DNA from: Candidatus Latescibacterota bacterium
Lineage (GTDB): Bacteria; Latescibacterota; UBA2968; GCA-2709665
Assembly (NCBI GenBank): GCA_963667175.2
Contig: CAXXXF010000004.1
Location: forward strand, 224,001-288,000
DNA length: 64,000 bases
Direction of reading: 5' to 3'
Shown here: positions 1-18,390 of the stretch, piece after piece
Numbering within the stretch: the stretch's first letter is position 1
Layout of the letters: each line of letters begins with the position of its first letter
Translations under genes and position numbers: made by a program
The notes under the pieces: generated by a model
Databases searched by the model: none
Told to the model about the DNA's origin: nothing
Seen by the model: only the letters and a program-made list of their open reading frames with translations

Positions 1-98
1 TCAATAAAGAGTGGAAATAGCTCTGCTCCTTCCTCCTTCGCTATCACGCTCACAAGAGTTGAATCAAATCCACCCGATACAAGAGTCACGATCCGCAA
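1..98 (-). CDS. QueC-like (7-cyano-7-deazaguanine synthase / PP-loop) protein, N-terminus only; runs off the window
   Basis: Hand translation from TTG at 98: MRIVTLVSGGFDSTLVSVIAKEEGAELFPLFI(D). Contains the SGGxDS PP-loop. AGGAGG RBS 9 nt upstream. Overlaps the end of the OGG gene. Not in the ORF track. Confidence 0.8.
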   Translation of the reverse strand, partial: MRIVTLVSGGFDSTLVSVIAKEEGAELFPLFI

Positions 99-777
99 TT
101 TTGGATTCCTCCTTTGCCACTCTTATTACAATCCAGACTGCAAGGTCGAATTGGTCAGGCGAGTATCCGAACGCACAGGCATGTTCGATAAAGGCGCTTT
201 CCAACGCTTCGTATTCGCACAGATTCGAAATCGATTTGAACGATGAGCCTGTAATTCCTACCCAACGCAAATAAGTCAGAACATGCACATCCAAGATCGC
301 AATGTACTTTGCAAAACAAATGTTGCGGAGAAATAGACTTGCCTGTTTCGGTCCCAGACCTGGAACCTCTCGCACTAGCAGTCTTCGAGCGCTGCAAACG
401 TCTTCTGAATCATCTAACAGGCTGAGTATTGACCCTCGTGTAATGTATATGTATTCTGCTGCCCGCCGAATCTGATTGGCACGGACGCGAAAAAAGGGAT
501 AACCTCCCGTTAGTGCTGCTAAAGTGTCCACTTCAAATTGATTAAAACAAGTGCGTGGCTGCGGTCGCGACAACAGACACATACTGCTCATGCGTTCGAT
601 GGCTGCATTAACAGCCTTGACTCTTACCCGACTACCCAGGATACATGACACAAGCTCCCTCCACAGTTCATCTTCGCTATGGATTCTCCAGGACACGGGC
701 GGGCGTTCTTCTAATGTGTTGCACACATCGCGGATCGCTTGTTCGATAGATAGTAGCGTGAAATTTTTCGTCGCCAT
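64..777 (-). CDS. N-glycosylase/DNA lyase (archaeal-type OGG, HhH family); Cap11-like
   Basis: HhH motif VPGLGPKQASLFLRN...AILDVHVL. ATG at 777 with GAAGGAG RBS, just after the upstream stop at 779. Confidence 0.82.
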   Translation of the reverse strand: MATKNFTLLSIEQAIRDVCNTLEERPPVSWRIHSEDELWRELVSCILGSRVRVKAVNAAIERMSSMCLLSRPQPRTCFNQFEVDTLAALTGGYPFFRVRANQIRRAAEYIYITRGSILSLLDDSEDVCSARRLLVREVPGLGPKQASLFLRNICFAKYIAILDVHVLTYLRWVGITGSSFKSISNLCEYEALESAFIEHACAFGYSPDQFDLAVWIVIRVAKEESKIADRDSCIGWI

Positions 778-778
778 G

Positions 779-1843
779 CTATTGAACTCCTTCGATAGCA
801 GGCAATAGCAGATCCAATTGTTCCTTAGTTGCATACTTTTGGACGAACGATTCAACTCTTCCGGTATACAGTGCTTCCTGAAACCCTACCATAAACTCGC
901 GATAAAAAACCAGATTGTGCATTAAGACAGATTGGACGTACGGTAGTACGGGAGATTGACCCCACTCTGTTTGGTTTCGGATCAGATCCCATTGCTGGAA
1001 ATGTAACAGCCTGCCATTCTCGTGATCAACGACTGCCTGACACCATTCCAATCCATCAAAACTATCGGCTCCCGCCAATGTGTAGGCAATGATTGAAATC
1101 GGATTTCCGGTTCCAAGCAGGTGAAGCGGGCAATAGAAGCCTAATGCGTTTAACGCTACTCGGATTCTCCGTACGGTGCGAATCCGATCGAGAATTCCCT
1201 CACCTAAATCTCGTTCCGCGACAGCCAACAATAAAGGGTAGAGCTTTTCCGCTGTTAAACGCGCCGCATCAGGCAATTCTTCTGCGTTGCCATGGACTAT
1301 CGGAAGCACTGTTGTCTGTGCATTCTCCTGATCTCTTGTTACACCGGCCACGACATCGTCGGCGATCGATTTCGGAGAGTCAGGTGGCTTCAGGTTATCA
1401 AAACAGAAGCAGAGATCGTGTTGATAGGATTGCACGACCTTATGAAAATCAGCCGGTCCCCAATCGGAATCTTGTTTCCAATAGCTTTCGTAGTTTCCGC
1501 TATCAATAAGTACAACGGCACCGCTTTCTATACGTCTATTAAGGGCAGTTTCCATGCGAGGGCGCTGATCATCAGGACAATTGGCTAAATCATATGCAGA
1601 AGCTAAAAACAGTGGATGACCAGTAACGGTCAGAAAGTCAGCGTAACTGACCGGCGATAGGCTTGTCTTCACGCTCGAAACTGAAGGAAAGAAACAGGGT
1701 ACTTGAACGGTTGTCTCAGCGACGTATAACTCCTGGCTTCGTTCGATTGCCGTAGAGGATTCGACGTTTAGGTATTTGGCTCCATTGCAATGTTGGATTG
1801 TCATCTTAATCATCCTTGATTGCTTGAATCTGAAGAACGCCAC
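779..1843 (-). CDS. tRNA-guanine transglycosylase (TGT)-like protein; Cap10-like
   Basis: Motifs LIDSGNYES, FCFD, LPIVHG, LHLLGTGNP, GADSFDG, HNL, typical of the TGT barrel. The start may be 1804 (MTIQHC). Confidence 0.8.
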   Translation of the reverse strand: MAFFRFKQSRMIKMTIQHCNGAKYLNVESSTAIERSQELYVAETTVQVPCFFPSVSSVKTSLSPVSYADFLTVTGHPLFLASAYDLANCPDDQRPRMETALNRRIESGAVVLIDSGNYESYWKQDSDWGPADFHKVVQSYQHDLCFCFDNLKPPDSPKSIADDVVAGVTRDQENAQTTVLPIVHGNAEELPDAARLTAEKLYPLLLAVAERDLGEGILDRIRTVRRIRVALNALGFYCPLHLLGTGNPISIIAYTLAGADSFDGLEWCQAVVDHENGRLLHFQQWDLIRNQTEWGQSPVLPYVQSVLMHNLVFYREFMVGFQEALYTGRVESFVQKYATKEQLDLLLPAIEGVQ

Positions 1844-1892
1844 GTAAGACTTCTGTCCATCGAAGAGTAAGTTTCGGAACAGAATACTGACT

Positions 1893-2852
1893 TTACGCCA
1901 TTTCTTCGCCCGCGTGGGTCGGACCGAAATTTACATTTCGGCGTACACACCACATAGTGTGCTCACGAGAAATGGTCTGCTCGACCTGCTCCACGAGCTC
2001 GAGAAAAACAGCCTCTTCCATTGCATCCAACGCGATTGTTTCCTGATCCCCAAGTTCCTGGGCGGCGAGCGAATAGGACTGAGCCAACTCATTGTAGCGC
2101 TTCATTTGACTCCAGGCGACAGCGGAAGCAGCGCAAGTCATTAACAACGGGACCACGTTTAATGGTAAGCCACTCGAACACGCCTGAATAATTGCAAGAG
2201 CAATGGCGGAAATCTGTAGAACAACAACTGTCCAGTACCAACGGATTTCCTTTCTTGAATTGAAGATGGCTTTATTTGAATACCAGGTCTTTTGATCGCG
2301 AAGCCGCGACTCAAGATATAGGTTCCGCCGTTCACCCACGGATTTCCGACGAATTTCATTCATAAGACCACTAACGGATTGAGCATTTGGATCGAGATTT
2401 TGCGCCAAATCCGTCGGGCTGGACGGTCTCGCTCCTCTTATTTGCTGAAGTTTCTCAAGAAATGATTGCTCAGATGTGCTGTCATCCTTGAATGGTTCAG
2501 CCTTCATCATGAATCGCCATGTGGCGGTCTTTGTTGACTCAGCAATCGCCCGACAGTCAAACCAAACTTCCTCATCCCGACGGACGCGGGATGTCAGAGT
2601 AAGAAAAATGCCAATTGTCAGAACGATCGCTAAAAGAACGTAGGTCCATGTGGCGACGATTGGAAATATTGTCGTCATGGCGACACTAACGCTCCCCAAG
2701 ATAAGACAGAATAAATGCCATCGATGAAAGTGAATATAGCGCCGCTGTGCCGAGATTGAGGATCGATCGGCACTCTGGTATAGTCCCGGAAAGTGTTCGT
2801 CTTCAACAATCGTTGGCGCTGATTCCTGCTGGTTATTCCCGTCATTGACCAT
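1893..2852 (-). CDS. SLATT/DUF4231-type membrane effector (two 2TM SLATT-like domains)
   Basis: PGLYQSADRSS..AQRRY, WFDCRAIAESTKTATWRF, QKTWY and EHTMW motifs with two hydrophobic hairpins. GGAGG RBS before ATG 2852. Confidence 0.8.
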   Translation of the reverse strand: MVNDGNNQQESAPTIVEDEHFPGLYQSADRSSISAQRRYIHFHRWHLFCLILGSVSVAMTTIFPIVATWTYVLLAIVLTIGIFLTLTSRVRRDEEVWFDCRAIAESTKTATWRFMMKAEPFKDDSTSEQSFLEKLQQIRGARPSSPTDLAQNLDPNAQSVSGLMNEIRRKSVGERRNLYLESRLRDQKTWYSNKAIFNSRKEIRWYWTVVVLQISAIALAIIQACSSGLPLNVVPLLMTCAASAVAWSQMKRYNELAQSYSLAAQELGDQETIALDAMEEAVFLELVEQVEQTISREHTMWCVRRNVNFGPTHAGEEMA

Positions 2853-2961
2853 CAAAATGCCTCCGAAAATCTGTGTTTTATCATCACACGTCTGTTCTTG
2901 AAGAAAATCGGTTTCGTGTGTCTAACGTTGCCCTGTCGTGCCGTCTAAAACTCAGTCCGAT

Positions 2962-3051
2962 CAGCCTCATCCGCCCAGTAATAAGGTGCAGTATCACTCC
3001 CTGTTTGACAGAACGGATCCTGCCCCGGCACAACTCCACCAAGGCGATCTC
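2962..3051 (-). pseudogene. degenerate relic of an hsdS 3' end
   Basis: EIALVELCRGRIRSVKQGVILHLITGRMRL aligns ungapped with the HsdS tail EIAALERRRKKVRAVKHGMMEQLLSGRVRL (14/30 identical by hand count). Confidence 0.65.
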
Positions 3052-3074
3052 AACAAGCTTAATGAAATCGTGGA

Positions 3075-3851
3075 CTATCCCGAGATGCTCTCGCTTAGAA
3101 AGCGCGTAATCCTCTCCTGATTTGCAGTGAGGCTGGAGAATTGCTTCTCGCAGACGTCGCTGAAGCGCGCCAACACCTTGCGATTAATCGACTCTTGGTC
3201 TTCGAAAATGGCGAGTGAACCGAACGGTATTTCCCACCGTTCAAATTGAAGGAGCGCGATCGTTGCGTCGCGGGTCCTGCCATCGCTCGCGAGCGCATGA
3301 ACGAATAACGGCCGCTGCATACCGTTGACTCGACAGTCCACGGTATACATTCCTTGAGGATCCCGTTCAGGATCGTTCCAGTCAAAACTCCGACGATTTT
3401 CCGGGACGGCGCCAGTCATCACCGTACGAAAATCGTCCATAAATGTGGAACTGACCCTTGCCCGAGATAAGTACGAAACGTCGGATATCTTGAGTAGCCC
3501 CTGAACGAACGAATACAGTGCGTCACCGTAACGTTCCTCCGGCACGTCAAGTATCAACTCTCCGTCACGATCCTCGATCTGAAACATGGAAAGTGTATTT
3601 GAAATGATTTTTTGACGCGTGCCACCATGGAGATCCTTCTCATCGATGTCGTATGTCAGATGCATGTACGTATGCGCTTCATCGGAAAGCACCCAACGTG
3701 TACCGTCCTTCCTTAAAACGATGTCCAGATGATCGCCGTCGTCGAACATGAACGGGGTAAACACGCGGAAGCGTTCCATACCCTCGGCCGCAAGCCGAAT
3801 CTGAGCCGAGACCTTCTCGTGAAAGTCTCGCTCTATGGTCTCAAAGGACAT
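3075..3851 (-). CDS. DUF1828/DUF1829-like protein
   Basis: N-terminal pattern VFTPFMFDDGDHLDI..LSDEAHT. The C-terminal domain resembles a restriction-endonuclease-like fold. Confidence 0.65.
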   Translation of the reverse strand: MSFETIERDFHEKVSAQIRLAAEGMERFRVFTPFMFDDGDHLDIVLRKDGTRWVLSDEAHTYMHLTYDIDEKDLHGGTRQKIISNTLSMFQIEDRDGELILDVPEERYGDALYSFVQGLLKISDVSYLSRARVSSTFMDDFRTVMTGAVPENRRSFDWNDPERDPQGMYTVDCRVNGMQRPLFVHALASDGRTRDATIALLQFERWEIPFGSLAIFEDQESINRKVLARFSDVCEKQFSSLTANQERITRFLSESISG

Positions 3852-3854
3852 TGC

Positions 3855-4337
3855 TTACACCTCCTCGAAAAGGTCAACTTGGAGGTCCGGCGGTAACACA
3901 AGATTCACATCGGAAATCAGACAACGAAGGGCACCGTGATAGTCTCCGAAACGGTCGGTTGGATCGGCGTACGCATCCTCCCTGGTTCCGAGTTCCTGAT
4001 ACCTCTCCGTGGCAACATGAATGTGAAAATCATAGAATTTCACGCCTTCAATGCGGTTCGAATGTTCTTGGCTCTTGCCATTATAGCGCCGGAGGCGGAA
4101 GAGTTGATTTGATCCCGGAACTCGAACAGCCAGAATAACTGAGAAGTCGAGCGGATTGATCTTATTCTGCCTGAGAATCAGACGATACTCGCTCCCCGCA
4201 TCACCTGCTAAATCAAGGTGTTGTTCTTCGTGGCCACGCTTGGACTTTAGACGAATCCGGGTGCGCCAATCTGGAGGCAGGAGCTTGCGCTCTTGTATCA
4301 ACGACTCTATCTCATGATCCGAAAACGTTACCGCCAT
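3855..4337 (-). CDS. hypothetical protein, DUF6978-like
   Basis: LRRYNGKSQEHSN...FHIH His motif. Lies 3 nt from the DUF1828 gene. Confidence 0.55.
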   Translation of the reverse strand: MAVTFSDHEIESLIQERKLLPPDWRTRIRLKSKRGHEEQHLDLAGDAGSEYRLILRQNKINPLDFSVILAVRVPGSNQLFRLRRYNGKSQEHSNRIEGVKFYDFHIHVATERYQELGTREDAYADPTDRFGDYHGALRCLISDVNLVLPPDLQVDLFEEV

Positions 4338-4379
4338 AACGATTACAATTCGATGGCCCACACCTGGCCGAAGAGTAGG

Positions 4380-4703
4380 CGCCGCATCCTTTGTACGTCT
4401 CGGACAACCGAAGCCGTTTTGGAGATCAATCCTATGTCGCGGAACTTTTCATAGCACAGGGACGAAACCCTGATTCCAGGTTTCCTGTCGCAACCGCTCC
4501 ACTTGCCGAGTAGATGGGATTTCCGCATCCAGCTTGAAGTAGACCGCGAGGGACGACTCACTCAGCCACAAGGCGTCCAGAGAGAACTCTCGAGCCTTAC
4601 ACATTGTACGGGCATCTTGGTCCAGTTAGACACCATGCGCGGGTTCACCATTCGCCAGATAGCCAGTTGCTTCAGGAACTTCGCCTAAGGATTGGGCGAT
4701 CAT
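4380..4703 (-). pseudogene. decayed N-terminus of a probable N-6 DNA methylase / fused RM protein
   Basis: GAGGG RBS, ATG 4703: MIAQSLGEVPEATGYLANGEPAHGV*LDQDAR...LDALWLSESSLAVYFK...QETWNQGFVPVL*KVPRHRIDLQNGFG. In-frame stops at 4628 and 4451. The family is recalled from the WN.GF.P.LW...IDL.NGF pattern. Confidence 0.5.
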
Positions 4704-5196
4704 CTAGCACCCTCACAAAGTCACAAATCACAATGAGACGATATATCCACTATTATACGTTATTACGGTCCTAGCATTCAACAAAATCCGCAATTACTGT
4801 GGTTCCACACCAAATCCAGTTCTCTATCACGGTGCAGGAAAGTCGATGAGGAATAATGTCAAAGCACGATTCGGGACGTGACAAAATGGAACACCAACGA
4901 CAATTAAACCAGTTACGGATGAATCGTGCATGGGATTGCGCGAAGATATGGCAAACTTCACACTACTGATTGGTCTGGGTAGATCGTGTATAACGTGTGA
5001 GATTGGCGTGTGGCGTGTGTTCGTGAAGCGCTGTACGCAAGATCGCCCACGCTTTCTCGTCGATTCAAAGGTCGTACTCAGCCGCGCGGACGTGCAGTCG
5101 GTGCTCAAAGTCTTCGCTTACGTCAATGTAATCTACGTCTCCTACAATGGCGACAAGGGTCAGCCGGCGAGGAGTAAAATTGCCCGATTGGACTCA

Positions 5197-6078
5197 TCAG
5201 TCTGCTTGCCTTTTTGAATTGGTTTCATAGAGATTTTCGGTGATTGCGCCTCGGAATATCTCTTCGTTGAGAAATTGCAAAACCTTTTTCGCCCTAGGCT
5301 TTTCCGAAGGGAAGACAATCTTGTCCTCTGAGATGTGAATATCGACGTCGTATCGAGCGGAACGCTCTCTGATTTCCCCGGCGGAATATTGATCAAGCAC
5401 CCCTGAATCCTTGAGCATAGCGAACCGCTTTCGGAACCATTGATTGGCTCCCATCACTAAGGAGTCCGGGTTTTGCGTTGCCAGCAGTTCGTGCCCCAAC
5501 ACGTCGCGAATCTCCTGATCCGACGCCTCCTTATAAAAGTCCTCTAAAGGAAGAAACGTGTTGACGGTACGGTAATTCCGAAACAACAGCTTACGTTCAT
5601 TCGGCAGATACACTGCTGCCAGTTTGTCATCAAGTGTAATCCCGGGATCTTGGATGGTCTTGTAGGTATTTTTCTCTAGAAACAGAAAACGCCCTGGTCG
5701 AATCAAATGCGAGCGGTTAAAATTCTGAAACAATACTATCTCCGCGCTTCCGCCACTTCGGGCAAAAGCCACGACTCCCTTGATGGATTCGATCAGCGTC
5801 TCATTGCTGCTGATTCTTTCAAGATTCGGAACTGTCTGACTGTCTTCGTATACAATCCAAGGTGGAGGGGTGTAATCATCTAAACAGAAACACTCATGCT
5901 CCTCCGGAGTGTAACCCGCATTGAAGTCGATTTCCTGAATTTCTAAAACGAATCTTCGGTACTGGTCTTGCCAATTCTCAGCGAGGTCGATCTGTAGGTC
6001 TTGATACAGAGGAATCGAGAGCAGGTTTGGACTTGTGCCCTGCTTTGCAATTACAGCAAGTTGGAAGTTTTCAAGCAT
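5197..6078 (-). CDS. kwaB: Kiwa anti-phage protein KwaB-like (DUF4868)
   Basis: ILFQNF..., GITLDDKLAAVY...KLLFRNY and LQFLNEEIFRGAITENLYETNSK tail. Overlaps the upstream membrane gene. Confidence 0.78.
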   Translation of the reverse strand: MLENFQLAVIAKQGTSPNLLSIPLYQDLQIDLAENWQDQYRRFVLEIQEIDFNAGYTPEEHECFCLDDYTPPPWIVYEDSQTVPNLERISSNETLIESIKGVVAFARSGGSAEIVLFQNFNRSHLIRPGRFLFLEKNTYKTIQDPGITLDDKLAAVYLPNERKLLFRNYRTVNTFLPLEDFYKEASDQEIRDVLGHELLATQNPDSLVMGANQWFRKRFAMLKDSGVLDQYSAGEIRERSARYDVDIHISEDKIVFPSEKPRAKKVLQFLNEEIFRGAITENLYETNSKRQAD

Positions 6079-6610
6079 CCGGCTCTCCTATATGTAGAAA
6101 GATATTCAAAGCGAGTCCAACCGTTTGGACTTCTCTTTCAGGTCTTCGCAAATCAACTCTGCTGATCAGAAGACTAGACACCCCACGCTTGTCTTTTACA
6201 GCGTAGAAGCGATAGCCAAACAACAGACGCATGACGGGATTAAAATGAAAGGCGCCGGCTTGCGCAATTGCTACTACGATGATTAGTAAAATATAGATGC
6301 TCGTTAGCGACTCGCTGGCAAACGTCGAATTTTCGGATCGGACAAAGGGCAACAAATAAATAAACAGGAATGTAAGAACCTCCTGATCCTTGCTTTCAAA
6401 TTCCTTAATGTAGAATGAGTGTTTTTGTGCTTTCTTCGCAGCGTTTCTCAAGAGCGCCCAACAAAGAGCAACCAAAACTATCGCAGCCAAGAACCACCAT
6501 ATCCAACTCGTCCATGGCTCGCAACGCTCGAATTGACTGATGGCCACGGCGCCGAGGACTGGAGATAAAGATGTTGATACCAACAGACACTTGGCAAGGA
6601 AGCTCAGCAT
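6071..6610 (-). CDS. kwaA: Kiwa anti-phage membrane protein KwaA-like
   Basis: About 4 TM segments, with LTFLFIYLLPF and FHFNPVMRLLFGYRFY motifs. Start overlaps the hsdS stop. Confidence 0.78.
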   Translation of the reverse strand: MLSFLAKCLLVSTSLSPVLGAVAISQFERCEPWTSWIWWFLAAIVLVALCWALLRNAAKKAQKHSFYIKEFESKDQEVLTFLFIYLLPFVRSENSTFASESLTSIYILLIIVVAIAQAGAFHFNPVMRLLFGYRFYAVKDKRGVSSLLISRVDLRRPEREVQTVGLALNIFLHIGEPDA

Positions 6611-7980
6611 GCTGGATTTTCCTTAGTAGGTGTTGGCAGATCCAGCCGTACCCGCCCGGATAAAAGTTGCTCCATCATCCCGTGCTTGACGGCACGAACT
6701 TTTTTTCTCCGTCGCTCCAACGCTGCGATCTCAGCATCCATATCGGAAAGGACAGTTGCGATGGCTCTTTGTTCGGTGTAGTTGGGAACAGAAAGTTCCA
6801 TAGACGCCATATCTCGGTTGCCTATTTCCAGAAATGTTGATCCAATTGCGCGCTCCAACATCCGAGACTTGAGCGTCAAGAGCACGTAATACAGAAACTC
6901 ACTCGAAACATCTGCTTTGCAGACGAGCGACTTAAACCCTTGGTTTGTGCATACTGGCGATATACTGATCTTAATCTCTCCGATGGTTGCGCGGCTGCAG
7001 AGCAGTAGGGAACCAGCAGGAAGCAGCCTCGCCCCGCAACTTGCCAATCCTTCCTCAGTGACACTCCGATGCGTCGCAACGAGGTACTTCTCACGCGTGG
7101 CCGTGATATCGGTGGGCGTACACCACGGAATCGGCCCGTTCCAATAGGCACCAATTTGAGTACTTGGCGTTGCTCCGCCGATAATGTCTGCGACTCTTCC
7201 GACCGTTGTCGTCTCCCACTCCCCGCAGAATCCCGGCAACCGAGTCTTGCCGGTAAGGAGTTGTTGCATCGCCGCTTGCTTGATGGCTCGTTTTTTGGCA
7301 ATCAGCGCTTCCAGCGTCGTAAGCAACCCATCCACATCCGACAACGCCTCGGCGATGGCGCGTTGTTCGGCCACAGGGGGGAGAAATGCACGGACGTTCC
7401 TGATTGACTGCTTTGATATTCCAAAGACCTTTAGACCAGTGGCGAGGCGACGCAATTGTTCCTTTGCCGGCCCATTCTCTAGAAGAAATCCGCGATAGCC
7501 ATATTGGACTCGCATGTCCTTTGATCTGAGCAGGAATGTATGCAATCCTGAAACTGCTTCAGCCGTACCAAGGTTTCGAATTTCGACGCTCTTACCTACA
7601 CCAATTTCGTCTTCGGAGGCATCTGCGACGACTAGATCGCCATCTCTAAGCCGGGTGGCTTTAACACTCTTGCCGCGCAAAAGATATGGTACATCTTCTC
7701 GGGAAAAGTCGATAACATGATCAAATCGGGTATGGATGTCGCCGTAATGTATATACGCCGTTTGCCCGGACTCTCCTAGATCGGCTCTAGAATTGGATGC
7801 AGTACTTTGGAAGTCGAAAAGTTCGCCAATGGAGAATACGGACCAATCATCGGGAATCACTCCCCATTCGGTTCGAGTGTAACCCTCGGGTGGATCATTC
7901 GATGGGGCAAATCCGGGTTCACTTTCTCTGCCCGAATGATCGGATATACTGTTCATCAAATTAACCCTTCGTGCGACCAC
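6604..7980 (-). CDS. hsdS: type I restriction-modification specificity subunit S
   Basis: Two TRDs with conserved spacers PPVAEQRAIAEALSDVD and EQRAIATVLSDMDAEIAALE. Confidence 0.95.
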   Translation of the reverse strand: MVARRVNLMNSISDHSGRESEPGFAPSNDPPEGYTRTEWGVIPDDWSVFSIGELFDFQSTASNSRADLGESGQTAYIHYGDIHTRFDHVIDFSREDVPYLLRGKSVKATRLRDGDLVVADASEDEIGVGKSVEIRNLGTAEAVSGLHTFLLRSKDMRVQYGYRGFLLENGPAKEQLRRLATGLKVFGISKQSIRNVRAFLPPVAEQRAIAEALSDVDGLLTTLEALIAKKRAIKQAAMQQLLTGKTRLPGFCGEWETTTVGRVADIIGGATPSTQIGAYWNGPIPWCTPTDITATREKYLVATHRSVTEEGLASCGARLLPAGSLLLCSRATIGEIKISISPVCTNQGFKSLVCKADVSSEFLYYVLLTLKSRMLERAIGSTFLEIGNRDMASMELSVPNYTEQRAIATVLSDMDAEIAALERRRKKVRAVKHGMMEQLLSGRVRLDLPTPTKENPAC

Positions 7981-8025
7981 TGCCTAGTAATGAACACACG
8001 CGGTCTGCAACCCGCTCACACTGGA

Positions 8026-8871
8026 CTATCGGCGACACAATTCCGCTATTATCGCCGCATTTTCGCCGAGTTGATCGCTGAATTTCTGGTACATTCCCAC
8101 CAAGAGAATATCGTTGGGTTTGACATTAGCGAGTGTATATGCGAATTCCTCCCGAATCCGGTTTCTCGAGCCGATAGCGCGTCCGGCCGCGAGGACTTTG
8201 AAGACAATGCATGGTTTGGCGATATTGCGAATGATGGCACACATGCGGTCGCGGTGTTCGCGGAGGTAGATTTCGCCGAGGGGCGCATAGCCGAATTTTT
8301 GTTCGAATTCCTCCTGGGCGCCCTGCAGATAATAGAGCGCGGTCATGTAATAGTCGATATCCCAATCTTCTTCTTCCGCGATTTCGATGACGCGGGGATT
8401 GTGGACCGACAACCCGACCATGACGCCGTTGTCACGAATCCGCTTCAGAATATCTTGAAGATGGTCGAGGCGGTTCTCCTGCAGGCATCGTCCCGCAACA
8501 CCGCTTCCGTGCGGCGCCATTCCGATGGGTTCATGCGTGGCGGCTTCGTCGATCAGCGAGGGATCGTCGTACCAGTTTCCGCCCCCGCTGAGACAGAAGT
8601 AATGAATAGCGCCTCCCTCGTCGCGATATCGTCGAAGATCGGCCGCCGATCGTTCGGTAAGCGTATTTTGCCAGGCGTTTACTCCCACTTCTTCCGCGCG
8701 GCGGAGGGTTGCCATAACCTGGTCCGACGAATTAGCTTCTCTCTGATGCTCTGAGAGCAACTGATTGAAGTGTGAATACCCATAGATCGGATTGTCGCCC
8801 ATGATAAGCCGGCTGATCCGATATTTCCCGAATGGAACTGTTGGAAGTCTTACTGTATCCAATGTTGACAC
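8026..8871 (-). CDS. aldo/keto reductase-fold hypothetical protein
   Basis: LPTVPFGKYRISRLIMGDN, VGLSVHNP and IVFKVLAAGR, an AKR-like barrel pattern. Confidence 0.65.
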   Translation of the reverse strand: MSTLDTVRLPTVPFGKYRISRLIMGDNPIYGYSHFNQLLSEHQREANSSDQVMATLRRAEEVGVNAWQNTLTERSAADLRRYRDEGGAIHYFCLSGGGNWYDDPSLIDEAATHEPIGMAPHGSGVAGRCLQENRLDHLQDILKRIRDNGVMVGLSVHNPRVIEIAEEEDWDIDYYMTALYYLQGAQEEFEQKFGYAPLGEIYLREHRDRMCAIIRNIAKPCIVFKVLAAGRAIGSRNRIREEFAYTLANVKPNDILLVGMYQKFSDQLGENAAIIAELCRR

Positions 8872-8892
8872 GCTGTGTCTCCTCTGCCCCTT

Positions 8893-11430
8893 TTACAACG
8901 ATAGCCCCATCCTTGTCAGGTGGCCCTCGACCTTCGCGCTGTATTCATCGACCTCCCGCTCCAACTTGGGAAGCGGCCGCGCATAACGCTCGTCGAGTTG
9001 CTTGACCCTACCGGTAAGTTGCTGTGTAATTCGCTGCACCTCTGCCTGAATATCGGCTCGGATGCGCGCGAACCATTTGTCCTCGATCACAAGCGACTTT
9101 ATTTCTTCATCAGTGAGCTGGTTGTACTTCGCAATGACCGCCATGTGCAACGCTTCCATCGCTCGTTCTTGCGCCTTCTTTTGCCTTGTCTCATCCGCGA
9201 TCAGCTGAAGATAATCGTAAAGAACATCCAGCTCCTCGAATAAGCCTTCTGCGTCCTTTATGTTCTTGATCCAGTCATTATCGCCAAATGTCGTCTTCTT
9301 GATCGACTTAGCCTGATCGTGCTCGGGCTCACCCTTGGGATACGCTTTCAAGATGGCGTCCTTGAGTTCTACGACTCGTAGCTGCACATTACCTTTTGTG
9401 ATTCCATTCTTGCCTTCCAAACCGTTAAGGGGCCCCTCTTCAGAAGCATGTTCTGCTTCGAATTCTTCCTTTCGTTCCGCTAATCTGGTGACTTCTGCCT
9501 TAAGTTGCTCGAGTTCCCGCTGTTCGGCGCTAAAAAACCCTGCAATTACCAGAGGTGAAGGTATCAATTCACCTACGTACTTGGAGGTCGTTTTTCCCTT
9601 TTTGATCGTGAATTCAGGCGATTCATTATCCTCTGGCGACCGAACGGTACGGCCGGCTTTCCAGCCATCTGAGGCAATCAGGTAGACATCGTCCTGCATA
9701 ACCTCATCCCAGTAATCCATCATCCGCTGGTAAACGTCGTGAGCGTCAATCAGGGGAAGGTCTCCAAAGCACTTCAATAGATCGTCCGCCAGAATACGTA
9801 CGATGTCCTTGAGATTCGTACCTGGACCAAGATCCGAAAGAGTCGATCGATGGGCCTTGCACCAATCGTTGAGAAGGACTGCAACCCGTTCCTCAAAAAG
9901 CTTGAATTCCCTGTGTTCAAGGATACTGGCTTTAAGCTGCTGAGTCTCAGTTCTGGCGTCACTATAGCCCGGACGGCCATTCCGTACAAACAACGCCTGA
10001 CGCAATGTCGGGAAGACCTCCCAATATGCAGCAAGTGTATCGAGGTCCCGATCCGGAATGCCGCCGTGCAGGTGCGCGTCAAGATCGTGCAAATCCTCCG
10101 CATCACTGGAGTCGATATATCGAGGAATGTTGAGGTTGTATTCGTTAGCAGGACTGCTGATCTCGGCTACCGGCACCATGCGGGAATAGCGAGGCAACTC
10201 AATCTGATTGTTGAAAACATCGGCGATCCGATGGATGTCCTGCGCCCGCAGCCGGTTCTTGTTCCCATCTTTGAGGAATCCCTTGCTGGCATCGATCATA
10301 AGGATACCCGTGCGAGCGTGGGCGTTCTCCTTATCGATGACGAGTATGCACGCGGGAATGCCAGTACCGTAGAAAAGGTTTGCAGGTAGGCCGATGATAC
10401 CCTTGATATAGCCGTGCTGGATTAGGTTCTTACGTATATCCGCCTCCTTGTTGCCGCGAAACAACACACCGTGCGGCAGAATTATCGCACCCTTTCCGTT
10501 GCTCTTGAGCGACGCAATGAGGTGTAAGAGGAAGGCATAGTCACCATTCCTTGCCGGGGGGATACCATACCCGAATCGTCCGTATTCGTCGTGTTCCGGA
10601 TTAAGTCCGCTGGTCCAGGCCTTAGCCGAAAAGGGTGGATTTGCGACGGCGAAGTCGAACGTCTTGAGACTGTCATCCGGGTTTTTGAAATACGGTGAGG
10701 CCAGCGTATTCCCACGCCAGAGTTCGGCGGTCGGGTGGCCATGCAGGATCAGGTTCATTCGAGCCAGCGCCCAGGTCGCGTTGTCCATCTCCTGGCCGTA
10801 GATTGAGATGCCGCTTGGCGCCTCGTCCGCGGCTTTGAGCAGTAGCGAGCCAGAGCCGCAGGTCGGATCGTAAATCGTCTGGTCCTGGCGAGTGTCAGAT
10901 CCAATGCCGATCACTTTCGCCATGATACGGGACACCTCGGCCGGCGTGTAAAATTGCCCTTTGCTCTTGCCTGACTCGGTAGCGAAGTGCATCATCAGGT
11001 ACTCGTACGCGTCGCCGAGCAGATCATCGCCCCCTCCGCGGTTAGCTCGAAAGTCCAGACCGTCGAATATGGCAACCAGTTTGGAAAGCCGATCCTGCAT
11101 TTCCTTGCCCGAACCGAGCTTGCTCTCGTCGTTGAAATCCGCCTGATCGATGACACCCTTTAAATCGTTCGACTCGGCAAGTCTACCAATGATCTTGTTA
11201 ATCCCGTCTCCTATTTCCTTTTTACCCTTCAACGCTAACATGTCCAAAAAGCCGCCGCCCGGAGGAACTTCGATAAGCGCGTTGGGATCGGAGGCGTGTT
11301 TGTCAGAGACATACTTCATGAACAAAAGGGTCAGGACGTAGTCTTTGTACTGAGACGCGTCCATGCCACCACGTAACTCGTCGCAGCTTTGCCAGAGTGA
11401 TGAATAGAGTTGGGATTTCTTCAATGCCAT
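8893..11430 (-). CDS. hsdM: type I restriction-modification methyltransferase M
   Basis: Start MALKKSQLYSSLW, GQFYTP, YDPTCGSGSLL, catalytic NPPF motif. Confidence 0.96.
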   Translation of the reverse strand: MALKKSQLYSSLWQSCDELRGGMDASQYKDYVLTLLFMKYVSDKHASDPNALIEVPPGGGFLDMLALKGKKEIGDGINKIIGRLAESNDLKGVIDQADFNDESKLGSGKEMQDRLSKLVAIFDGLDFRANRGGGDDLLGDAYEYLMMHFATESGKSKGQFYTPAEVSRIMAKVIGIGSDTRQDQTIYDPTCGSGSLLLKAADEAPSGISIYGQEMDNATWALARMNLILHGHPTAELWRGNTLASPYFKNPDDSLKTFDFAVANPPFSAKAWTSGLNPEHDEYGRFGYGIPPARNGDYAFLLHLIASLKSNGKGAIILPHGVLFRGNKEADIRKNLIQHGYIKGIIGLPANLFYGTGIPACILVIDKENAHARTGILMIDASKGFLKDGNKNRLRAQDIHRIADVFNNQIELPRYSRMVPVAEISSPANEYNLNIPRYIDSSDAEDLHDLDAHLHGGIPDRDLDTLAAYWEVFPTLRQALFVRNGRPGYSDARTETQQLKASILEHREFKLFEERVAVLLNDWCKAHRSTLSDLGPGTNLKDIVRILADDLLKCFGDLPLIDAHDVYQRMMDYWDEVMQDDVYLIASDGWKAGRTVRSPEDNESPEFTIKKGKTTSKYVGELIPSPLVIAGFFSAEQRELEQLKAEVTRLAERKEEFEAEHASEEGPLNGLEGKNGITKGNVQLRVVELKDAILKAYPKGEPEHDQAKSIKKTTFGDNDWIKNIKDAEGLFEELDVLYDYLQLIADETRQKKAQERAMEALHMAVIAKYNQLTDEEIKSLVIEDKWFARIRADIQAEVQRITQQLTGRVKQLDERYARPLPKLEREVDEYSAKVEGHLTRMGLSL

Positions 11431-11500
11431 TATTCATTCCTTACCGAATGTGATGGACGACTTATAAATTTCGGACCCAAATTGCCTCCTGCAAAGCCCC

Positions 11501-11660
11501 TCAGTCAAAAACCAGCACCGTGCGCGCCACCTTCCCCTGAACCATGTCTTCGAATGCCTCGTTGATCTCGTCCAGCGGTCGATAGCGGGAAATCAGTTCG
11601 TCCAGCTTGGTCTTCCCTGCCGATACAGATCCGGAATCCAGAGGAAGTCCACGCGGGTCC
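11501..11660 (-). pseudogene. frameshifted 3' fragment of a Zn-dependent alcohol dehydrogenase
   Basis: TRVDFLWIPDLYRQG | (1-nt frameshift) KTKLDELISRYRPLDEINEAFEDMVQGKVARTVLVFD*. The rest of the gene is absent. Confidence 0.8.
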
Positions 11661-11676
11661 CGGCATTTCCTTTCTC

Positions 11677-12255
11677 TCAACCGCCCCGGATACCGAGCCG
11701 GGCGAGGACGTCCGACCACCGTTTCGCGTGACTCTCGTGGGTGTGCAGAGGCCGGAATCCTGCCGTGAGATAGCTCTTGATTGCCGGGACACGCCAATCG
11801 TCGGTGAGCAGGTGGGCCTGGCGATAGCCCAGCTCTCTGAGTCGATGAAGCACGGCGGCGTTGACCAGGTGGCCCAGGCCTTTCCCGCGCTGGTCTTCCA
11901 GCACGGCAACCATATGCACTTCCCCCACGATGCGTTCGGTCAGATCCCGGCGCCACGCGCAGGCGGAGCCGACGAGCCGCGAATCGATGGTTGCAAAAAA
12001 GAGACTTTGCGGATGGAAGCGGGGGTCGTTAATGAGTTTTTCACGGCAGGTTTCAGGCGTCCAGTCCCGCCCCACGTTTCCTTCCATGATCGCGCACCAT
12101 CCGGCTTCGTCGCCCGAACGGTACGTTCGCAGCCCATACCCTTCCGGGATCCGGATTTCCGGAAGGTCCTGCAGCGTATCTCTTATCATCTCCAGTTGCG
12201 GCGGTGGCGGAGGAGGTGATTTGGCGCACATGGAAGAAAGAATCCTGCGAAGCAT
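11677..12255 (-). CDS. GNAT family N-acetyltransferase
   Basis: VAVLEDQRGKGLG acetyl-CoA motif and AIKSYLTAGF. Start uncertain (12255 or 12231). Confidence 0.85.
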   Translation of the reverse strand: MLRRILSSMCAKSPPPPPPQLEMIRDTLQDLPEIRIPEGYGLRTYRSGDEAGWCAIMEGNVGRDWTPETCREKLINDPRFHPQSLFFATIDSRLVGSACAWRRDLTERIVGEVHMVAVLEDQRGKGLGHLVNAAVLHRLRELGYRQAHLLTDDWRVPAIKSYLTAGFRPLHTHESHAKRWSDVLARLGIRGG

Positions 12256-12582
12256 GGTGGTTCTCTGGTCGAATCGGCGCGGTCTGTACCGGGGTACCGT
12301 TGGCTCGCGGTTATGCCGGGCCGGTCGCAGATCCCCGGACCCCTGCGCATCGATTGCAAATACCGTCCGTGGTCGCCATTCGTCTGACGCGAAACGGGGT
12401 TCCCGACCCGGCCGCGCCCTTATGTACAATATGAGCGTCGCGGCCGTTGGTGTCAACGGATAATCGCCCGTTCGAGCCCTGGATCGGGGGAACGAATTCG
12501 CGCCTGGCGCGAATGAAACCGGGGCCGGATTCAGCCCTGAAATCACGCCCCGGCCGGGGCCTGTTGATTCTTCGGTAATGCC

Positions 12583-12611
12583 TTGACAATTGCCAATCCT
12601 TGTGATATACT
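12583..12611 (+). promoter_or_regulatory. sigma70-type promoter of the nuo operon
   Basis: TTGACA(12583)-17 nt-TATACT(12606) with extended TGn, 80 nt upstream of nuoA. Confidence 0.8.
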
Positions 12612-12691
12612 ATCACCGCCGAAAAGCGGTCCTCGGAATGAATGCCATTCCGGAACCGTTTTTTTGAGCATGTGGGAGGTCCAGGCGCACG

Positions 12692-13057
12692 ATGCTGGTC
12701 GATTATCTTCCGATTGTTATTCTGATGGCGGTGGCCGTCGGGTTTGCAGCCGTCAGTCTGTTAATAACGCATCTGTTCGGGCCCCGCCGACCCAATCCGG
12801 TCAAATTGTCGCCATATGAATCGGGTGTGCCTCCCGTAGGCGATGCCAGACTGCGGTTTTCGGTCAAGTTTTACGTTGTGGCGATGCTGTTTATCGTCTT
12901 CGATATCGAAGTCGTGTTCTTGTACCCCTGGGCCGTTGTCTTTAAGGAAATGCTGGCCCAGGGGAACTTTATTTTTACGGAAATGGTGGTATTCCTCGGC
13001 GTTCTGGCGCTGGGGCTGGCGTACGTCTGGCGGAAGGGCGGCCTGGATTGGGATTGA
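12692..13057 (+). CDS. nuoA: NADH-quinone oxidoreductase subunit A
   Basis: KLSPYESG, FIVFDIEVVFLYPWA, KGGLDW. Confidence 0.96.
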   Translation: MLVDYLPIVILMAVAVGFAAVSLLITHLFGPRRPNPVKLSPYESGVPPVGDARLRFSVKFYVVAMLFIVFDIEVVFLYPWAVVFKEMLAQGNFIFTEMVVFLGVLALGLAYVWRKGGLDWD

Positions 13058-14929: not shown

Positions 14930-15409
14930 ATGGCGATCGCGCTTTCCGATGAGACGTTGAAGAAGTGCGAGGAGATGATCACGCACTATCCGCAGGAATG
15001 GCGAAAGGCGGCAATTCTTCCCGTTCTGCATCTGGCGCAGAAGGAGTGGGGGTACATCTCCCTCGAAGGATTGAGATACGTGGCGAACCTGCTGGAGATC
15101 CCGCCCGCCCATGCGGCGGGCGTGATGAGCTTCTATCCGATGTTCCACAAGGCGCCCGTGGGCGAGGTTGTCATCCATGTCTGCGGCACGCTGTCCTGTG
15201 CGCTCTGCGGCGCCGGCGAGCTTACGAAACACCTCAAGGAAAAACTGAAAATAGACGTGGGTGAAACCACCGGAGACGGACGGTTCACGCTGGCCAAGGT
15301 GGAGTGCATTGCGGCATGCGAAGGCGCGCCGGCCGTTCTGATCAACGAGGAACTGCATCGTTGCGTGACCCGGGAAAAGCTGGACGAACTGCTGGACCGG
15401 TCCGCGTAA
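14930..15409 (+). CDS. nuoE: NADH-quinone oxidoreductase subunit E
   Basis: CGTLSC...CIAAC 2Fe-2S motif. Confidence 0.95.
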   Translation: MAIALSDETLKKCEEMITHYPQEWRKAAILPVLHLAQKEWGYISLEGLRYVANLLEIPPAHAAGVMSFYPMFHKAPVGEVVIHVCGTLSCALCGAGELTKHLKEKLKIDVGETTGDGRFTLAKVECIAACEGAPAVLINEELHRCVTREKLDELLDRSA

Positions 15410-15429
15410 AACAGTCGAATTGACAGGGT

Positions 15430-16767
15430 ATGCCTGAAGAACACAAAATCATCACCGAAGGCTTCGGCGTAGATGGCCTCCGGACGATCGACGTCTACAG
15501 GGCTCATGGCGGATATACGGCCATCGAGAAGGCCTTCGGAATGTCACAGGACGAGGTGATCGACGAGGTGAGGGAGTCGTTGCTGGCCGGTCGGGGAGGC
15601 GCGTGGTTCCCGGCCGGTGTGAAATGGGGGTTTATGCCGAAAGAACCCCGCGAGCCCAGTTACCTCTGCGTGAATGCCGACGAAAGCGAGCCGGGCACGT
15701 TCAAGGACCGGCATCTGATGGAGCAGAATCCGCATCAGATGCTCGAGGGTACCATTATCGCGTCGTACGCGATGCGGGTAAGCGTGGCATACGTCTATAT
15801 CCGCGGCGAGATGTTCGAGGCCAGGAGGATCGTGGAGAAGGCGATCGCCGAGGCGCGGGCGGCCGGCTTTATCGGCAGGGACATTCTGGGTTCCGGATAC
15901 GACCTGGAGGTCTACGTCCACCCTGGCGCCGGGGCCTATATTTGCGGTGAGGAAATGGGCCTGATCCAGTCCCTCAACGGCAACCGAGCCGAGCCGCGCG
16001 CAAAACCGCCGTTTCCCGCCCAGCAGGGTGTTTTCGAACGGCCCACCACGGTGAACAACGTCCAGACGCTTTCTTACGTGCCCCACATCGTGAACCGGGG
16101 GGCGGACTGGTTCAAGGGAATCGGCAGCGAACGGTTTCCCGGCACGTTCATTTTCTGTGTCAGCGGCCATGTGAACAATCCGGGGATGTTCGAGCTCGAA
16201 ACCGGTTCCGTCACGATGCGCCAGATCGTGGAGGATTTCGCGGGGGGAGTGCGCGACGGCCGCGCGTTGAAAGCGGTGATTCCAGGCGGGGCCTCAACGC
16301 CGCCGATGACACCCGACCAGATCGATATCGTAATGGACCCGTCGAATTTCCTTGCGCCGGGCGGGGGAGACTTCCAGGGCATGTTCGGCACGGGCGGGAT
16401 CATTGTGATGGACGAAACTTCGTGCATGGTCGACGCTTTGTTGAACTTCATGGTCTTCTTCGCTCACGAGTCCTGCGGCCAGTGCACGCCCTGCCGTGAG
16501 GGATGCCCATGGGCGCGGGATATCGTGTGGCGGATCGAGAATGGCCTGGGGAAACGGGGCGACCTGGATACGTTGCTCGACATAGCCCATAACGTCGGGC
16601 CTTATCTGTGTCCGCCTTCCAGGCTGACAACCATATGCGGCTTCGGCGGGGCGTTTGCAAATCCGATCCACGGATTCGTGCAGACGTTCCGGGACGAATT
16701 CGAGGCCCACGTCGAAGAGGGTCGATACCCGGTCAAACAGGACAAATCCACTCGGGTTCCGGGATAA
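15430..16767 (+). CDS. nuoF: NADH-quinone oxidoreductase subunit F
   Basis: NADESEPGTFKDR, GAGAYICGEE, ESCGQCTPCREG. Confidence 0.95.
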   Translation: MPEEHKIITEGFGVDGLRTIDVYRAHGGYTAIEKAFGMSQDEVIDEVRESLLAGRGGAWFPAGVKWGFMPKEPREPSYLCVNADESEPGTFKDRHLMEQNPHQMLEGTIIASYAMRVSVAYVYIRGEMFEARRIVEKAIAEARAAGFIGRDILGSGYDLEVYVHPGAGAYICGEEMGLIQSLNGNRAEPRAKPPFPAQQGVFERPTTVNNVQTLSYVPHIVNRGADWFKGIGSERFPGTFIFCVSGHVNNPGMFELETGSVTMRQIVEDFAGGVRDGRALKAVIPGGASTPPMTPDQIDIVMDPSNFLAPGGGDFQGMFGTGGIIVMDETSCMVDALLNFMVFFAHESCGQCTPCREGCPWARDIVWRIENGLGKRGDLDTLLDIAHNVGPYLCPPSRLTTICGFGGAFANPIHGFVQTFRDEFEAHVEEGRYPVKQDKSTRVPG

Positions 16768-16773
16768 ATCAAG

Positions 16774-18390
16774 ATGGCGACGTTTACGATTGATGGCAGT
16801 GAAATTGAGATCGTCCCTGGAAAGAACGTGCTCCAGACGGCGATTGACAACGGGATCTACGTCCCTCACTATTGCTACCACCCGGGGCTCAGCGCGCCGG
16901 CAAACTGCCGCATGTGCCTTGTGGAGATGGACGTGGGCGGTCGTCGCAGCCTCGGACCTTCCTGCTCCGCCATGCCCGCCGATGGCATGGTTGTGGATAC
17001 GCAGTCGGACGTCGTCAAGGAAAACCAGAATGCCGTGATGGAATTCCTGCTGGTGAATCATCCGCTGGACTGTCCGGTGTGCGATCAGTCCGGCGAGTGC
17101 GAGCTGCAGGACTACAGCTACACGTACGGGACCGACAGGAGCCGGTACCACGAGAAGAAGCTGGTCCAGCCCAAGAAAGACGTCGGAAGGCACGTGTTGT
17201 TGTATTCCGACCGGTGCATCCGGTGTACCCGCTGCATCCGGTTCTGCGACGAGGTTTCCGGAACGGGCGAGCTGGGGTACTTCAATCGGGGGGTCTATAA
17301 CGAAATCGACGTGTTCCCCGGGGCGAGGATGGACAATCGACTGTCGGGCAATACCGTGGATATCTGCCCGGTCGGCGCGTTGCTGGACAAATCGTTTCTT
17401 TTCAAACAGCGTGTATGGTTTCTGAAGTCGGTCGACACGATCTGCCCGGGATGCAGCACGGGATGCAACGTCAGGGCCGATTACAACAATGAACGGATCT
17501 ACCGACTGGCGCCGCGCGAGAATCCGGACGTGAACGAATACTGGATGTGTGACGACGGACGCCACGGGTGGGGCTACGTGCATGCCGACGACCGTCTGCT
17601 GTTTCCGATGCTGGGGCGAGGCGAGGCGCAGGAACTGGCGCTGTGGGAGGCCGCGCTGAAGGCGACGAGGGCCGGATTCGAACGCGTTCGGTCGGAGTAC
17701 GGAGACGGCGCCGTGGCGGGGATTGCGTCGGCTCACCTGACCAACGAAGAGCACTATCTTTTCGGCAGTCTCTTCTCGAACGGGCTGGCGGGTGGTCCCG
17801 TCGCGGTCCACACCAGACTCAGCGACGAGGGCGACGTGACGTTCAAGGGCGGATTCACCATCCATGGGGACAAGTCTCCCAATTCACGCGGCGCGCGGAC
17901 CGTGCTTGAGGGGTTGGGGTTGTCTCTCGCGGAGCCGCCGGAAATCTGGCGCGGCATCGCGGAAGGACGGATACGGGGTCTCTACCTTCTGGGCGGCGAT
18001 CCTCTGGCTTCGTTGTCCGACGAGGAACAGACGGCCCTGGCAACCCTCGACTTTCTGGTCGTTCAGGATATCCGGGCTCGCAGCTGGACGGCGATGGCCG
18101 ACGTGATCCTGCCCGGCGCGGCGTTTATCGAGAAGGACGGCACGTTCAGCAATTTCGGCGGACGGGTACAGCGTGTACGGCGGGGCCTGGCCCCAGTCGG
18201 CGACGCGCGTGCGGACTGGGAGATCCTTCGGGACGTCAACCGGGAGATGGGGGTCGAAGCCGCACACGACCGGATCGAAGCGGTTATGGCCGACCTGGCG
18301 AACGCCGTCGCGGCCTTCGAGGGAGTGGACGATGATGACGGGGGAGACCGGGGAAAGCCACTTGTTGAGATTGAGGCAGCCGGAGCGTAG
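16774..18390 (+). CDS. nuoG: NADH-quinone oxidoreductase subunit G (short, 538 aa)
   Basis: CYHPGL..NCRMC, HPLDCPVCDQSGEC, CIRCTRC, CPGCSTGC..C. Confidence 0.93.
   Translation: MATFTIDGSEIEIVPGKNVLQTAIDNGIYVPHYCYHPGLSAPANCRMCLVEMDVGGRRSLGPSCSAMPADGMVVDTQSDVVKENQNAVMEFLLVNHPLDCPVCDQSGECELQDYSYTYGTDRSRYHEKKLVQPKKDVGRHVLLYSDRCIRCTRCIRFCDEVSGTGELGYFNRGVYNEIDVFPGARMDNRLSGNTVDICPVGALLDKSFLFKQRVWFLKSVDTICPGCSTGCNVRADYNNERIYRLAPRENPDVNEYWMCDDGRHGWGYVHADDRLLFPMLGRGEAQELALWEAALKATRAGFERVRSEYGDGAVAGIASAHLTNEEHYLFGSLFSNGLAGGPVAVHTRLSDEGDVTFKGGFTIHGDKSPNSRGARTVLEGLGLSLAEPPEIWRGIAEGRIRGLYLLGGDPLASLSDEEQTALATLDFLVVQDIRARSWTAMADVILPGAAFIEKDGTFSNFGGRVQRVRRGLAPVGDARADWEILRDVNREMGVEAAHDRIEAVMADLANAVAAFEGVDDDDGGDRGKPLVEIEAAGA

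Follow-up and report, generated by a model that had tools for sequence, protein, structure and literature searches.

The left end of a 64,000-nucleotide stretch of contig CAXXXF010000004.1 from a Candidatus Latescibacterota bacterium (the whole stretch is called the window here) carries four genes on the minus strand that encode a double-SLATT membrane protein, a TGT-family protein, an OGG-type glycosylase and the beginning of a QueC-family protein. We found that this module is a defence operon, and that its genes are probably the first four of a five-gene TIR-based (Thoeris-like) abortive-infection operon using the deazaguanylation machinery of type IV CBASS (cyclic oligonucleotide-based antiphage signalling system). 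The module is not a strict type IV CBASS, because the enzyme that defines that type, the cGAS/DncV-like nucleotidyltransferase (CD-NTase), is absent in the relatives of the locus. From the operon set of TIR, effector, cap9, cap10 and cap11, four of the five genes lie in the window and the fifth was found in collinear relatives. For the annotation of the window, this means that the genes belong to a defence operon and not to queuosine metabolism.

The four genes stand head to tail at the left window end and are intact within the window (Table 1). The open reading frame (ORF) of the membrane protein opens at TTG 2855, and ATG 2852, with GGAGG 7 nt upstream, is the likelier start. Pfam showed a SLATT_3 domain (E=1.9e-31, residues 23-177) followed by a SLATT_1 domain (E=1.3e-30, residues 180-302) and no domain besides these two; NCBIfam gave the same pair (1.2e-38 and 2.1e-29), and each half holds one hydrophobic hairpin (residues 46-92 and 204-247). 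After a gap of 88 nt comes the TGT gene, the ORF of which opens at GTG 1843; since the homologues are 324-341 aa long, ATG 1804 is its likely start. The protein matched Pfam TGT (E=2.2e-11) and the PADLOC model 'TGT' (PDLC00913, E=2.2e-22). The OGG gene starts 1 nt after the TGT stop and matched Pfam Ogg-HhH (E=3.2e-22) and HhH-GPD (2.3e-6). The QueC gene starts with a TTG that is preceded by AGGAGG at a spacing of 9 nt, and it overlaps the 3' end of the OGG gene by 35 nt. Its fragment holds the PP-loop motif SGGFDS and scored 21.0 bits with Pfam QueC (E=2.6e-4), just under the gathering score of 22, as is to be expected of so short a piece. An earlier reading made from the letters alone (the sequence-only reading) had described four packed co-oriented genes, a TTG start at 98 with a ribosome-binding site and the SGGFDS motif, and the ORFs and Pfam matches bore it out in every detail. 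Promoter-like sites in positions 1..4500 numbered 5 against 4.4 expected and terminator-like sites 3 against 4.5 expected, none of which suits the operon, and an Rfam scan of 1..13000 matched nothing.

The sequence beyond the left edge was read in two relatives. The closer one, locus L015, is a Latescibacterota metagenome-assembled genome (MAG) chromosome whose TGT protein is 96% identical to that of the window; window positions 1..4783 align with L015 7022..11804 at 91.6% nucleotide identity (4.8 kb), with the alignment breaking off exactly at window base 1. The next relative is locus L001 (75%). Both keep the SLATT, TGT and OGG genes. Past the OGG gene, both have a QueC-like gene that encodes 198 aa and shares its TTG start and its N-terminus with that of the window. 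In these relatives the QueC frame is not cut short, and an early end was an outcome that the sequence-only reading had named as one that would speak against it. Directly after QueC, both relatives encode a 167-aa TIR protein (Pfam ThsB_TIR, E of about 1e-24 to 1e-25; PADLOC ThsB, 1.6e-18), followed by an unrelated HEC-03A/B pair and then a type I hsdR gene. No CD-NTase was found in either relative downstream of QueC. Judged by this collinearity, the fifth gene of the operon would lie just past window base 1 and would encode a ThsB-type TIR protein of about 167 aa, in which an M-G-G-(G/S)-rich tail is followed by an amphipathic helix and then by the TIR core.

The wider distribution of the module was surveyed in 79 loci, which were fetched with an alignment of the window TGT and 25 database homologues and limited to one genome per GTDB species. 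All ORFs of these loci were searched against the five L015 proteins, and a TIR was counted at E<1e-20. The loci span Latescibacterota, Nitrospirota, Acidobacteriota, Planctomycetota, Proteobacteria, Bacteroidota, Chloroflexota, one bacterium of the candidate phyla radiation and one archaeon. The results showed that the order TGT-OGG-QueC-TIR is present in 73 of the 79 loci. Near the TGT gene, OGG was found in 73/79 loci (68/73 of those that have 2 kb or more of sequence 3' of TGT), QueC in 75/79 (72/73) and TIR in 73/79 (70/73). Most of the misses are loci at contig ends. Among the six loci without a strong TIR match, the distance from the TGT gene to the contig end is at most about 1.1 kb in L016 and L033 and about 1.7 kb in L039, whose TGT is split over two ORFs, and L049 is a degenerate locus. 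The archaeal Methanoperedens locus (L077) has a divergent TIR (ThsB_TIR 6.7e-15) that begins with M and a run of Gly. In L036, which has no OGG gene, a 111-aa protein is encoded 3' of QueC (11729-12064); it has a Gly-rich tail and a helix, no TIR domain and no Pfam match, and may be another substrate of the same tagging enzymes or a truncation. The TIR gene is fixed in its position and translationally coupled to QueC. The gene arrangement is not due to chance. In a large protein collection, the L015 TIR query found 836 homologues at E<=1e-3, and TGT homologues numbered 1444.

For the cyclase, 322 neighbour ORFs were clustered and Pfam was run on representatives, 40 at E<=1e-3 and, with a minimum ORF length of 200 aa, 96 at E<=1e-8. 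None of these 40 + 96 representatives matched the CD-NTase/SMODS families, and the only matches of nucleotidyltransferase fold were a small Polbeta-type protein (L026) and an AbiEii toxin. These results bear on the proposal of the sequence-only reading that a canonical type IV CBASS is present whose CD-NTase lies just past the left window edge. The QueC, TGT and OGG genes do make up a Cap9/10/11 set and match the PADLOC models TGT and QueC, which we take to be the type IV CBASS models of that collection. SLATT proteins are also cited as CBASS effectors in the available text of a recent preprint (Yirmiya et al. 2025, bioRxiv 10.64898/2025.12.03.692087). But the place after QueC is taken in the collinear L015 by the TIR gene, then the HEC-03 pair and hsdR, the TIR holds that position in 73/79 loci, and the scan of the neighbours found no CD-NTase. 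This contradicts a CD-NTase beyond the edge, and we consider a canonical type IV CBASS highly improbable. The other proposal, a cyclase-less system, stood in the literal sense that there is no CD-NTase; a signal generator is not lacking, however, and the TIR replaces the cyclase.

The N-terminus of the TIR protein was compared across the loci. We found that 70 of 73 TIRs start with M-G-G, and that positions 4-8 are mostly Gly or Ser; the exceptions are an MAG start (L007), an MGN start (L018) and a frameshifted gene (L067). Among the best 120 of the 836 TIR homologues, 111 start with MGG, 8 with MGS and 1 with MVGG. In the alignment of 70 sequences, a conserved helix with a nearly invariant L18 lies between the tail and the TIR core, and a W112-E113 pair is invariant in 70/70; E113 is presumably the catalytic glutamate of ThsB-type TIRs. 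According to the available text on type IV CBASS, Cap9 ligates 7-carboxy-7-deazaguanine to Gly2 of the CD-NTase, the tagged N-terminus of which is then bound by Cap10 (Wassarman et al., bioRxiv 10.1101/2025.04.06.647259). The same source gives M(G/S)G(G/S)GG as the universal site of the N-terminal deazaguanine (NDG) in type IV CD-NTases; it is followed by helix alpha-1, the docking element for Cap9 and Cap10. Judged by these motifs, the TIR protein appears to take the place of the cyclase and to bear the cyclase's N-terminal acceptor motif.

Other forms of TIR were seen in the surveyed loci. In L045 (9653-11080), the TGT carries an N-terminal TIR_2 domain (Pfam TIR_2 1.9e-12 plus TGT). Such TIR::TGT fusions occur in 13 loci, mostly of Rhizobiales (L045, L057, L058, L064, L065, L067-L070, L073, L075, L076 and L079); their N-terminal domain is homologous to the TIR_2 of L045, and a separate MGG-tailed TIR is retained. 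A PfkB-like gene lies just upstream in 12 loci, largely the fusion set (L068 is without it). In the Mesorhizobium locus L067, the gene of the MGG-tailed TIR (12226-12644) is frameshifted between the tail and helix and the TIR core. An extra small TIR-like ORF is present in 14 loci (15 ORFs of 112-170 aa, forming one cluster), in several of them between the SLATT and TGT genes; in L003 (9601-10002) it encodes a ThsB TIR that has no tail, the Pfam ThsB_TIR match (1.2e-19) beginning at residue 7. The window and L015 are without this extra gene.

The kinship of the three enzymes was assessed by comparison with solved structures and curated families. The best match of the TGT protein among PDB sequences was Cap10 (9ntn_A, E=5.6e-7, and 4.3e-9 with a profile). 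In a Foldseek search with an AlphaFold2 model of the TGT (mean predicted local distance difference test score, pLDDT, 76.8), Cap10 9ntn again came first in the PDB (E=1.4e-11, template modelling (TM) score 0.57-0.63). H228 and D250 of the TGT align with the catalytic pair H226 and D248 of Cap10. Neither they nor D101 and S102 vary among 26 homologues; the latter two align with the nucleobase-reading D73 and S74 of Cap10 only in a non-significant HMMER stretch. The full-length QueC of L015 and L001 matched Pfam QueC (2.9e-34) and PADLOC 'QueC' (1.3e-27), and the best PDB match of the L015 protein was Cap9 (9nto_B, 6e-13), slightly ahead of canonical QueC (1.2e-10). The SGGFDS of the window fits the Cap9 motif SxGxDS, which is essential in Cap9 according to the available text of Wassarman et al. 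These results indicate that the QueC, TGT and OGG genes encode relatives of Cap9, Cap10 and Cap11 and not housekeeping queuosine enzymes; the sequence-only reading had likewise seen them as kin of the type IV CBASS ancillary genes.

Two other roles of these enzymes were weighed. The Pfam family names TGT, QueC and Ogg-HhH would fit housekeeping genes of queuosine or archaeosine metabolism (tgt, queC) beside a DNA-repair glycosylase. The NCBIfam equivalog scores, however, are far under their cut-offs (Tgt 20.3 bits vs 306.75; TgtA 26.8 vs 350; QueC 17.6 vs 150.3 for the 32-aa fragment), and the N-glycosylase/DNA lyase model gave 83.3 bits (1.5e-23) on OGG against an equivalog cut-off of 183. 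A grouping of TGT and QueC with housekeeping enzymes, which would also have counted against the sequence-only reading, was thus not found. In addition, the GC content here is 47.7%, compared with 57.6% for the window, the genes lie in a defence island, and in one phylum after another they stand together with SLATT and TIR genes. The housekeeping reading, to which we give practically no credence, is ruled out by the equivalog scores and the gene context.

The second role is a Dpd-like modification or restriction of nucleic acids, in which preQ0 or 7-amido-7-deazaguanine (ADG) would be made by QueC and placed in DNA or RNA by TGT, with OGG as an enzyme that excises bases and the TIR and SLATT genes as unrelated neighbours. 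The catalytic Asp/His pair of the TGT is intact, the HhH-GPD glycosylase is a DNA enzyme by ancestry and the module adjoins type I restriction-modification (R-M) genes, all of which would agree with this reading, as would the fact that TGT-family enzymes put 7-deazaguanines into tRNA and DNA (Wassarman et al., available text). However, no CxCxxC zinc motif was found in the TGT protein sequence. According to the same text, the zinc site by which nucleic-acid binding is stabilised in QTRT1 is likewise missing from Cap10. The PADLOC scan matched no Dpd model, and the TGT protein matched only the model named 'TGT'. Models for Dpd are part of the PADLOC collection. No DpdB-like or DpdC-like partner was found among the neighbour ORFs scanned in the related loci. 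A TIR that is fixed in position, coupled to QueC and equipped with the NDG tail in 70/73 cases is also not what would be expected of a chance neighbour. We therefore hold a Dpd-like system to be clearly improbable.

The effector side of the loci was also analyzed. SLATT proteins are the commonest effectors, and 57 of the 79 loci have one no more than 6 kb away from the TGT gene. With phmmer, 35 loci had a SLATT ORF of 280 aa or more, which is the size class of the double-domain protein of the window, and another 21 had shorter ones (single-domain DUF4231/SLATT_1 proteins of about 165 aa, along with some truncated ORFs), the domain content being that of the representatives on which Pfam was run. 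Depending on the locus, the other effectors are TPR-S/MAP3K_TRAF_bd proteins, an alpha/beta-hydrolase together with TPR-S, and an 8xMP membrane protein, and SLATT and TPR-S proteins occur together in several loci. Because variable effectors around a fixed core are the usual signature of a signal-and-effector system, these results point to such a system, and the double-SLATT protein is likely to be its effector, the role that the sequence-only reading had given it.

NAD+ depletion is the mode of action of some bacterial TIR proteins. The TIR could accordingly be the NAD+-depleting effector itself, held off by deazaguanylation and Cap10 binding, with the SLATT protein as an anchor or an independent toxin. 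A SLATT protein without an extra domain and the 22 of 79 loci without SLATT nearby would be in keeping with this. The TIR, however, belongs to the small ThsB-type proteins, which produce signals, and the effectors that vary around it include TPR-S, a domain named a sensor in Pfam. Moreover, the available text of Yirmiya et al. reports that a TIR with a SLATT protein (type VII Thoeris, effector ThsH) defends via canonical cyclic ADP-ribose (cADPR). We consider the TIR improbable as the effector and retain the signal-and-effector reading. The same text reports that a TIR with a CMP-hydrolase-TPR protein (type VIII, ThsI) also signals via canonical cADPR, that the TPR domain of ThsI is suggested to perceive cADPR, and that types VII and VIII sometimes share an operon.

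A mechanism can be proposed for the TIR-based operon, all steps of which we infer from homology. Met1 of the TIR would be removed, and the QueC/Cap9-like enzyme would use ATP to ligate 7-carboxy-7-deazaguanine to the Gly2 amine, giving an N-terminal 7-amido-7-deazaguanine (the NDG) on the TIR. The TGT/Cap10-like protein would seat the NDG-tagged tail in its nucleobase pocket and restrain the TIR, and it may go on to transfer the tag, with the TIR attached, to some target, since the nucleophile Asp and its partner His are kept. The OGG/Cap11-like glycosylase would reverse or limit the TGT step. Upon phage infection, the TIR would be released or activated and would convert NAD+ to a cADPR-type signal, which the double-SLATT protein would bind; it would then oligomerise in the membrane and kill or arrest the cell before the phage cycle is completed. 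In a bolder version that we think rather unlikely, the TGT-like enzyme would transglycosylate the whole TIR, via the free N9 of its N-terminal deazaguanine, onto phage or host nucleic acid; this covalent tether would switch signalling on and the OGG-like enzyme would cut it. Three features of the loci would fit a portable 'NDG tag' module with conjugation as well as removal at its core: Cap11 is present in 73/79 of them, TIR::TGT fusions occur in 13, and the tail and helix stand on a non-TIR protein in L036. If the TIR is tagged like the CD-NTase, a second large family of immune signalling enzymes would come under the same nucleobase-protein chemistry, and the tail plus helix would be a transferable regulatory tag. 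The glycosylase is almost always kept, which makes this a good family in which to seek the transfer target of Cap10 and the role of Cap11.

Several points weigh against the TIR-based reading. The TIR gene lies outside the window, and for this genome it is predicted from synteny with a relative of 91.6% identity. A very divergent cyclase could have escaped the 96-ORF scan, given its E-value threshold, its single representative per cluster and its minimum ORF length. The TGT resembles the solved Cap10 weakly (about 19% identity), the significant HMMER alignment of the two covers only about 65 residues, and the Foldseek lead of Cap10 is small, the tRNA TGTs reaching TM scores of 0.50-0.56. Loci with no SLATT nearby make up 22 of the 79, and cADPR as the signal is a best guess by analogy with other SLATT-linked TIRs.

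The operon stands in a defence island, the features of which are listed in Table 1. In positions 1-24000 of the window, the GC fraction is 0.47-0.52 over the first 10 kb or so and 0.58-0.63 beyond about 13 kb, where respiratory complex I genes begin, and the low-GC island looks horizontally acquired. KwaA and KwaB form a complete Kiwa pair. The DUF6978 and DUF1828 genes lie directly upstream of the SLATT gene and are kept in L015; they are probably a separate candidate defence pair. An unannotated 281-aa ORF lies between hsdM and hsdS, and no hsdR was seen in window 1-24 kb. In L015 and L001, hsdR (about 14950-18190) comes only after the TIR module and the HEC-03A/B pair, so the R-M genes, with hsdM/hsdS on one side and hsdR on the other, flank an array of inserted defence cassettes. 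Window positions 4380-5124 contain no long ORF and match L001 20157-20904 at 68.8% nucleotide identity. An intact gene begins within the L001 match (from 20581 on); of this gene the window keeps a 51-aa fragment (4604..4449), and the segment looks like the remnant of a decayed gene.

Table 1. Features of the operon and of the neighbouring defence island in the window
Feature	Position	Strand	Basis and remarks
Double-SLATT membrane protein (SLATT_3 + SLATT_1)	2852..1893	minus	Pfam, NCBIfam; 319 aa from ATG 2852
TGT-family protein, Cap10-like	1804..779	minus	Pfam, PADLOC, PDB search; 341 aa from ATG 1804
OGG-type HhH-GPD glycosylase, Cap11-like	777..64	minus	Pfam, NCBIfam; 237 aa from ATG 777
QueC-family protein, Cap9-like, 5' end	98..1	minus	TTG 98, 32 codons, cut by window edge
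DUF1828 protein	3851..3075	minus	PADLOC candidate PDC-M24B 2.2e-18
DUF6978 protein	4361..3855	minus	Pfam 1.3e-6, just under gathering score
KwaB	6078..5197	minus	PADLOC 4.5e-62
KwaA	6610..6071	minus	PADLOC 6.5e-40
Type I hsdS	7980..6604	minus	R-M gene
Type I hsdM	11430..8896	minus	R-M gene

The operon was compared with four known systems. With type IV CBASS (CD-NTase, effector, Cap9 and Cap10, with or without Cap11), it shares the Cap9-, Cap10- and Cap11-like enzymes, a membrane effector, the conserved catalytic Asp/His of Cap10 and SxGxDS of Cap9, and a Gly-rich acceptor tail with a docking helix on the signalling enzyme, here the TIR. It differs in that a TIR stands in place of the CD-NTase, so a messenger derived from NAD is to be expected instead of a cyclic oligonucleotide, in that its TGT is only about 19% identical to the solved Cap10, and in that Cap11 is present in 73/79 loci, compared with roughly a third of type IV CBASS systems in the available literature. 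QatABCD likewise repurposes a QueC-family enzyme (QatC) for anti-phage defence (PMC13279940, PMC13639016), whereas it contains an ATPase and a TatD nuclease and, in the available descriptions, no TGT, OGG, TIR or SLATT. In the available part of a review of the QueC family (PMC13329287), QatC is proposed to deazaguanylate a partner protein and falls in a QueC cluster separate from that of Cap9, a CD-NTase adjoins 67% of the Cap9 cluster, and TIR is not mentioned. As far as these sources go, the CBASS CD-NTases are the one class of substrates in which deazaguanylation of a protein has been demonstrated to date, and the review proposes QatB as another. Type VII Thoeris also pairs a ThsB-type TIR with a SLATT-domain membrane effector; in the available text it is a two-gene system without Cap9/10/11, and its likeness to the SLATT_3 + SLATT_1 protein of the window is by domain type only.

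The closest counterpart is the group of Thoeris operons carrying cap9, cap10 and cap11 that is described in the preprint of Yirmiya et al. (2025, Fig. 6G). The sequence-only reading had held that a cyclase-less deazaguanine-based system would be new, and this preprint, even in the part available, precedes it. In our full-text literature search, the coverage of which left out Burroughs et al. 2015 and the Science version of Wassarman et al., it was the only source that links a TIR with Cap9/10/11. Both the operons of the preprint and that of the window combine Cap9-like (QueC), Cap10-like (TGT) and Cap11-like (OGG) genes with a ThsB-type TIR and an effector. Binding of the TIR to Cap9 and Cap10, in the manner of the CD-NTase, is proposed in the preprint, whose AlphaFold3 models give interface predicted TM (ipTM) scores of 0.79 for ThsB-Cap10 and 0.62 for ThsB-Cap9 with contacts like those of the CD-NTase. 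In its available text, the treatment consists of two sentences and these models with one Pseudomonadales example, and the comparison made here is by text only. What the present analysis adds to it are the lineage of the window, whose closest relatives are Latescibacterota MAGs, the MGG tails in 70/73 TIRs, the OGG gene in 73/79 loci and the TIR::TGT fusions. The best place for the operon is thus among the Thoeris-type systems, as one that has a Cap9/10/11 module together with a double-SLATT effector.

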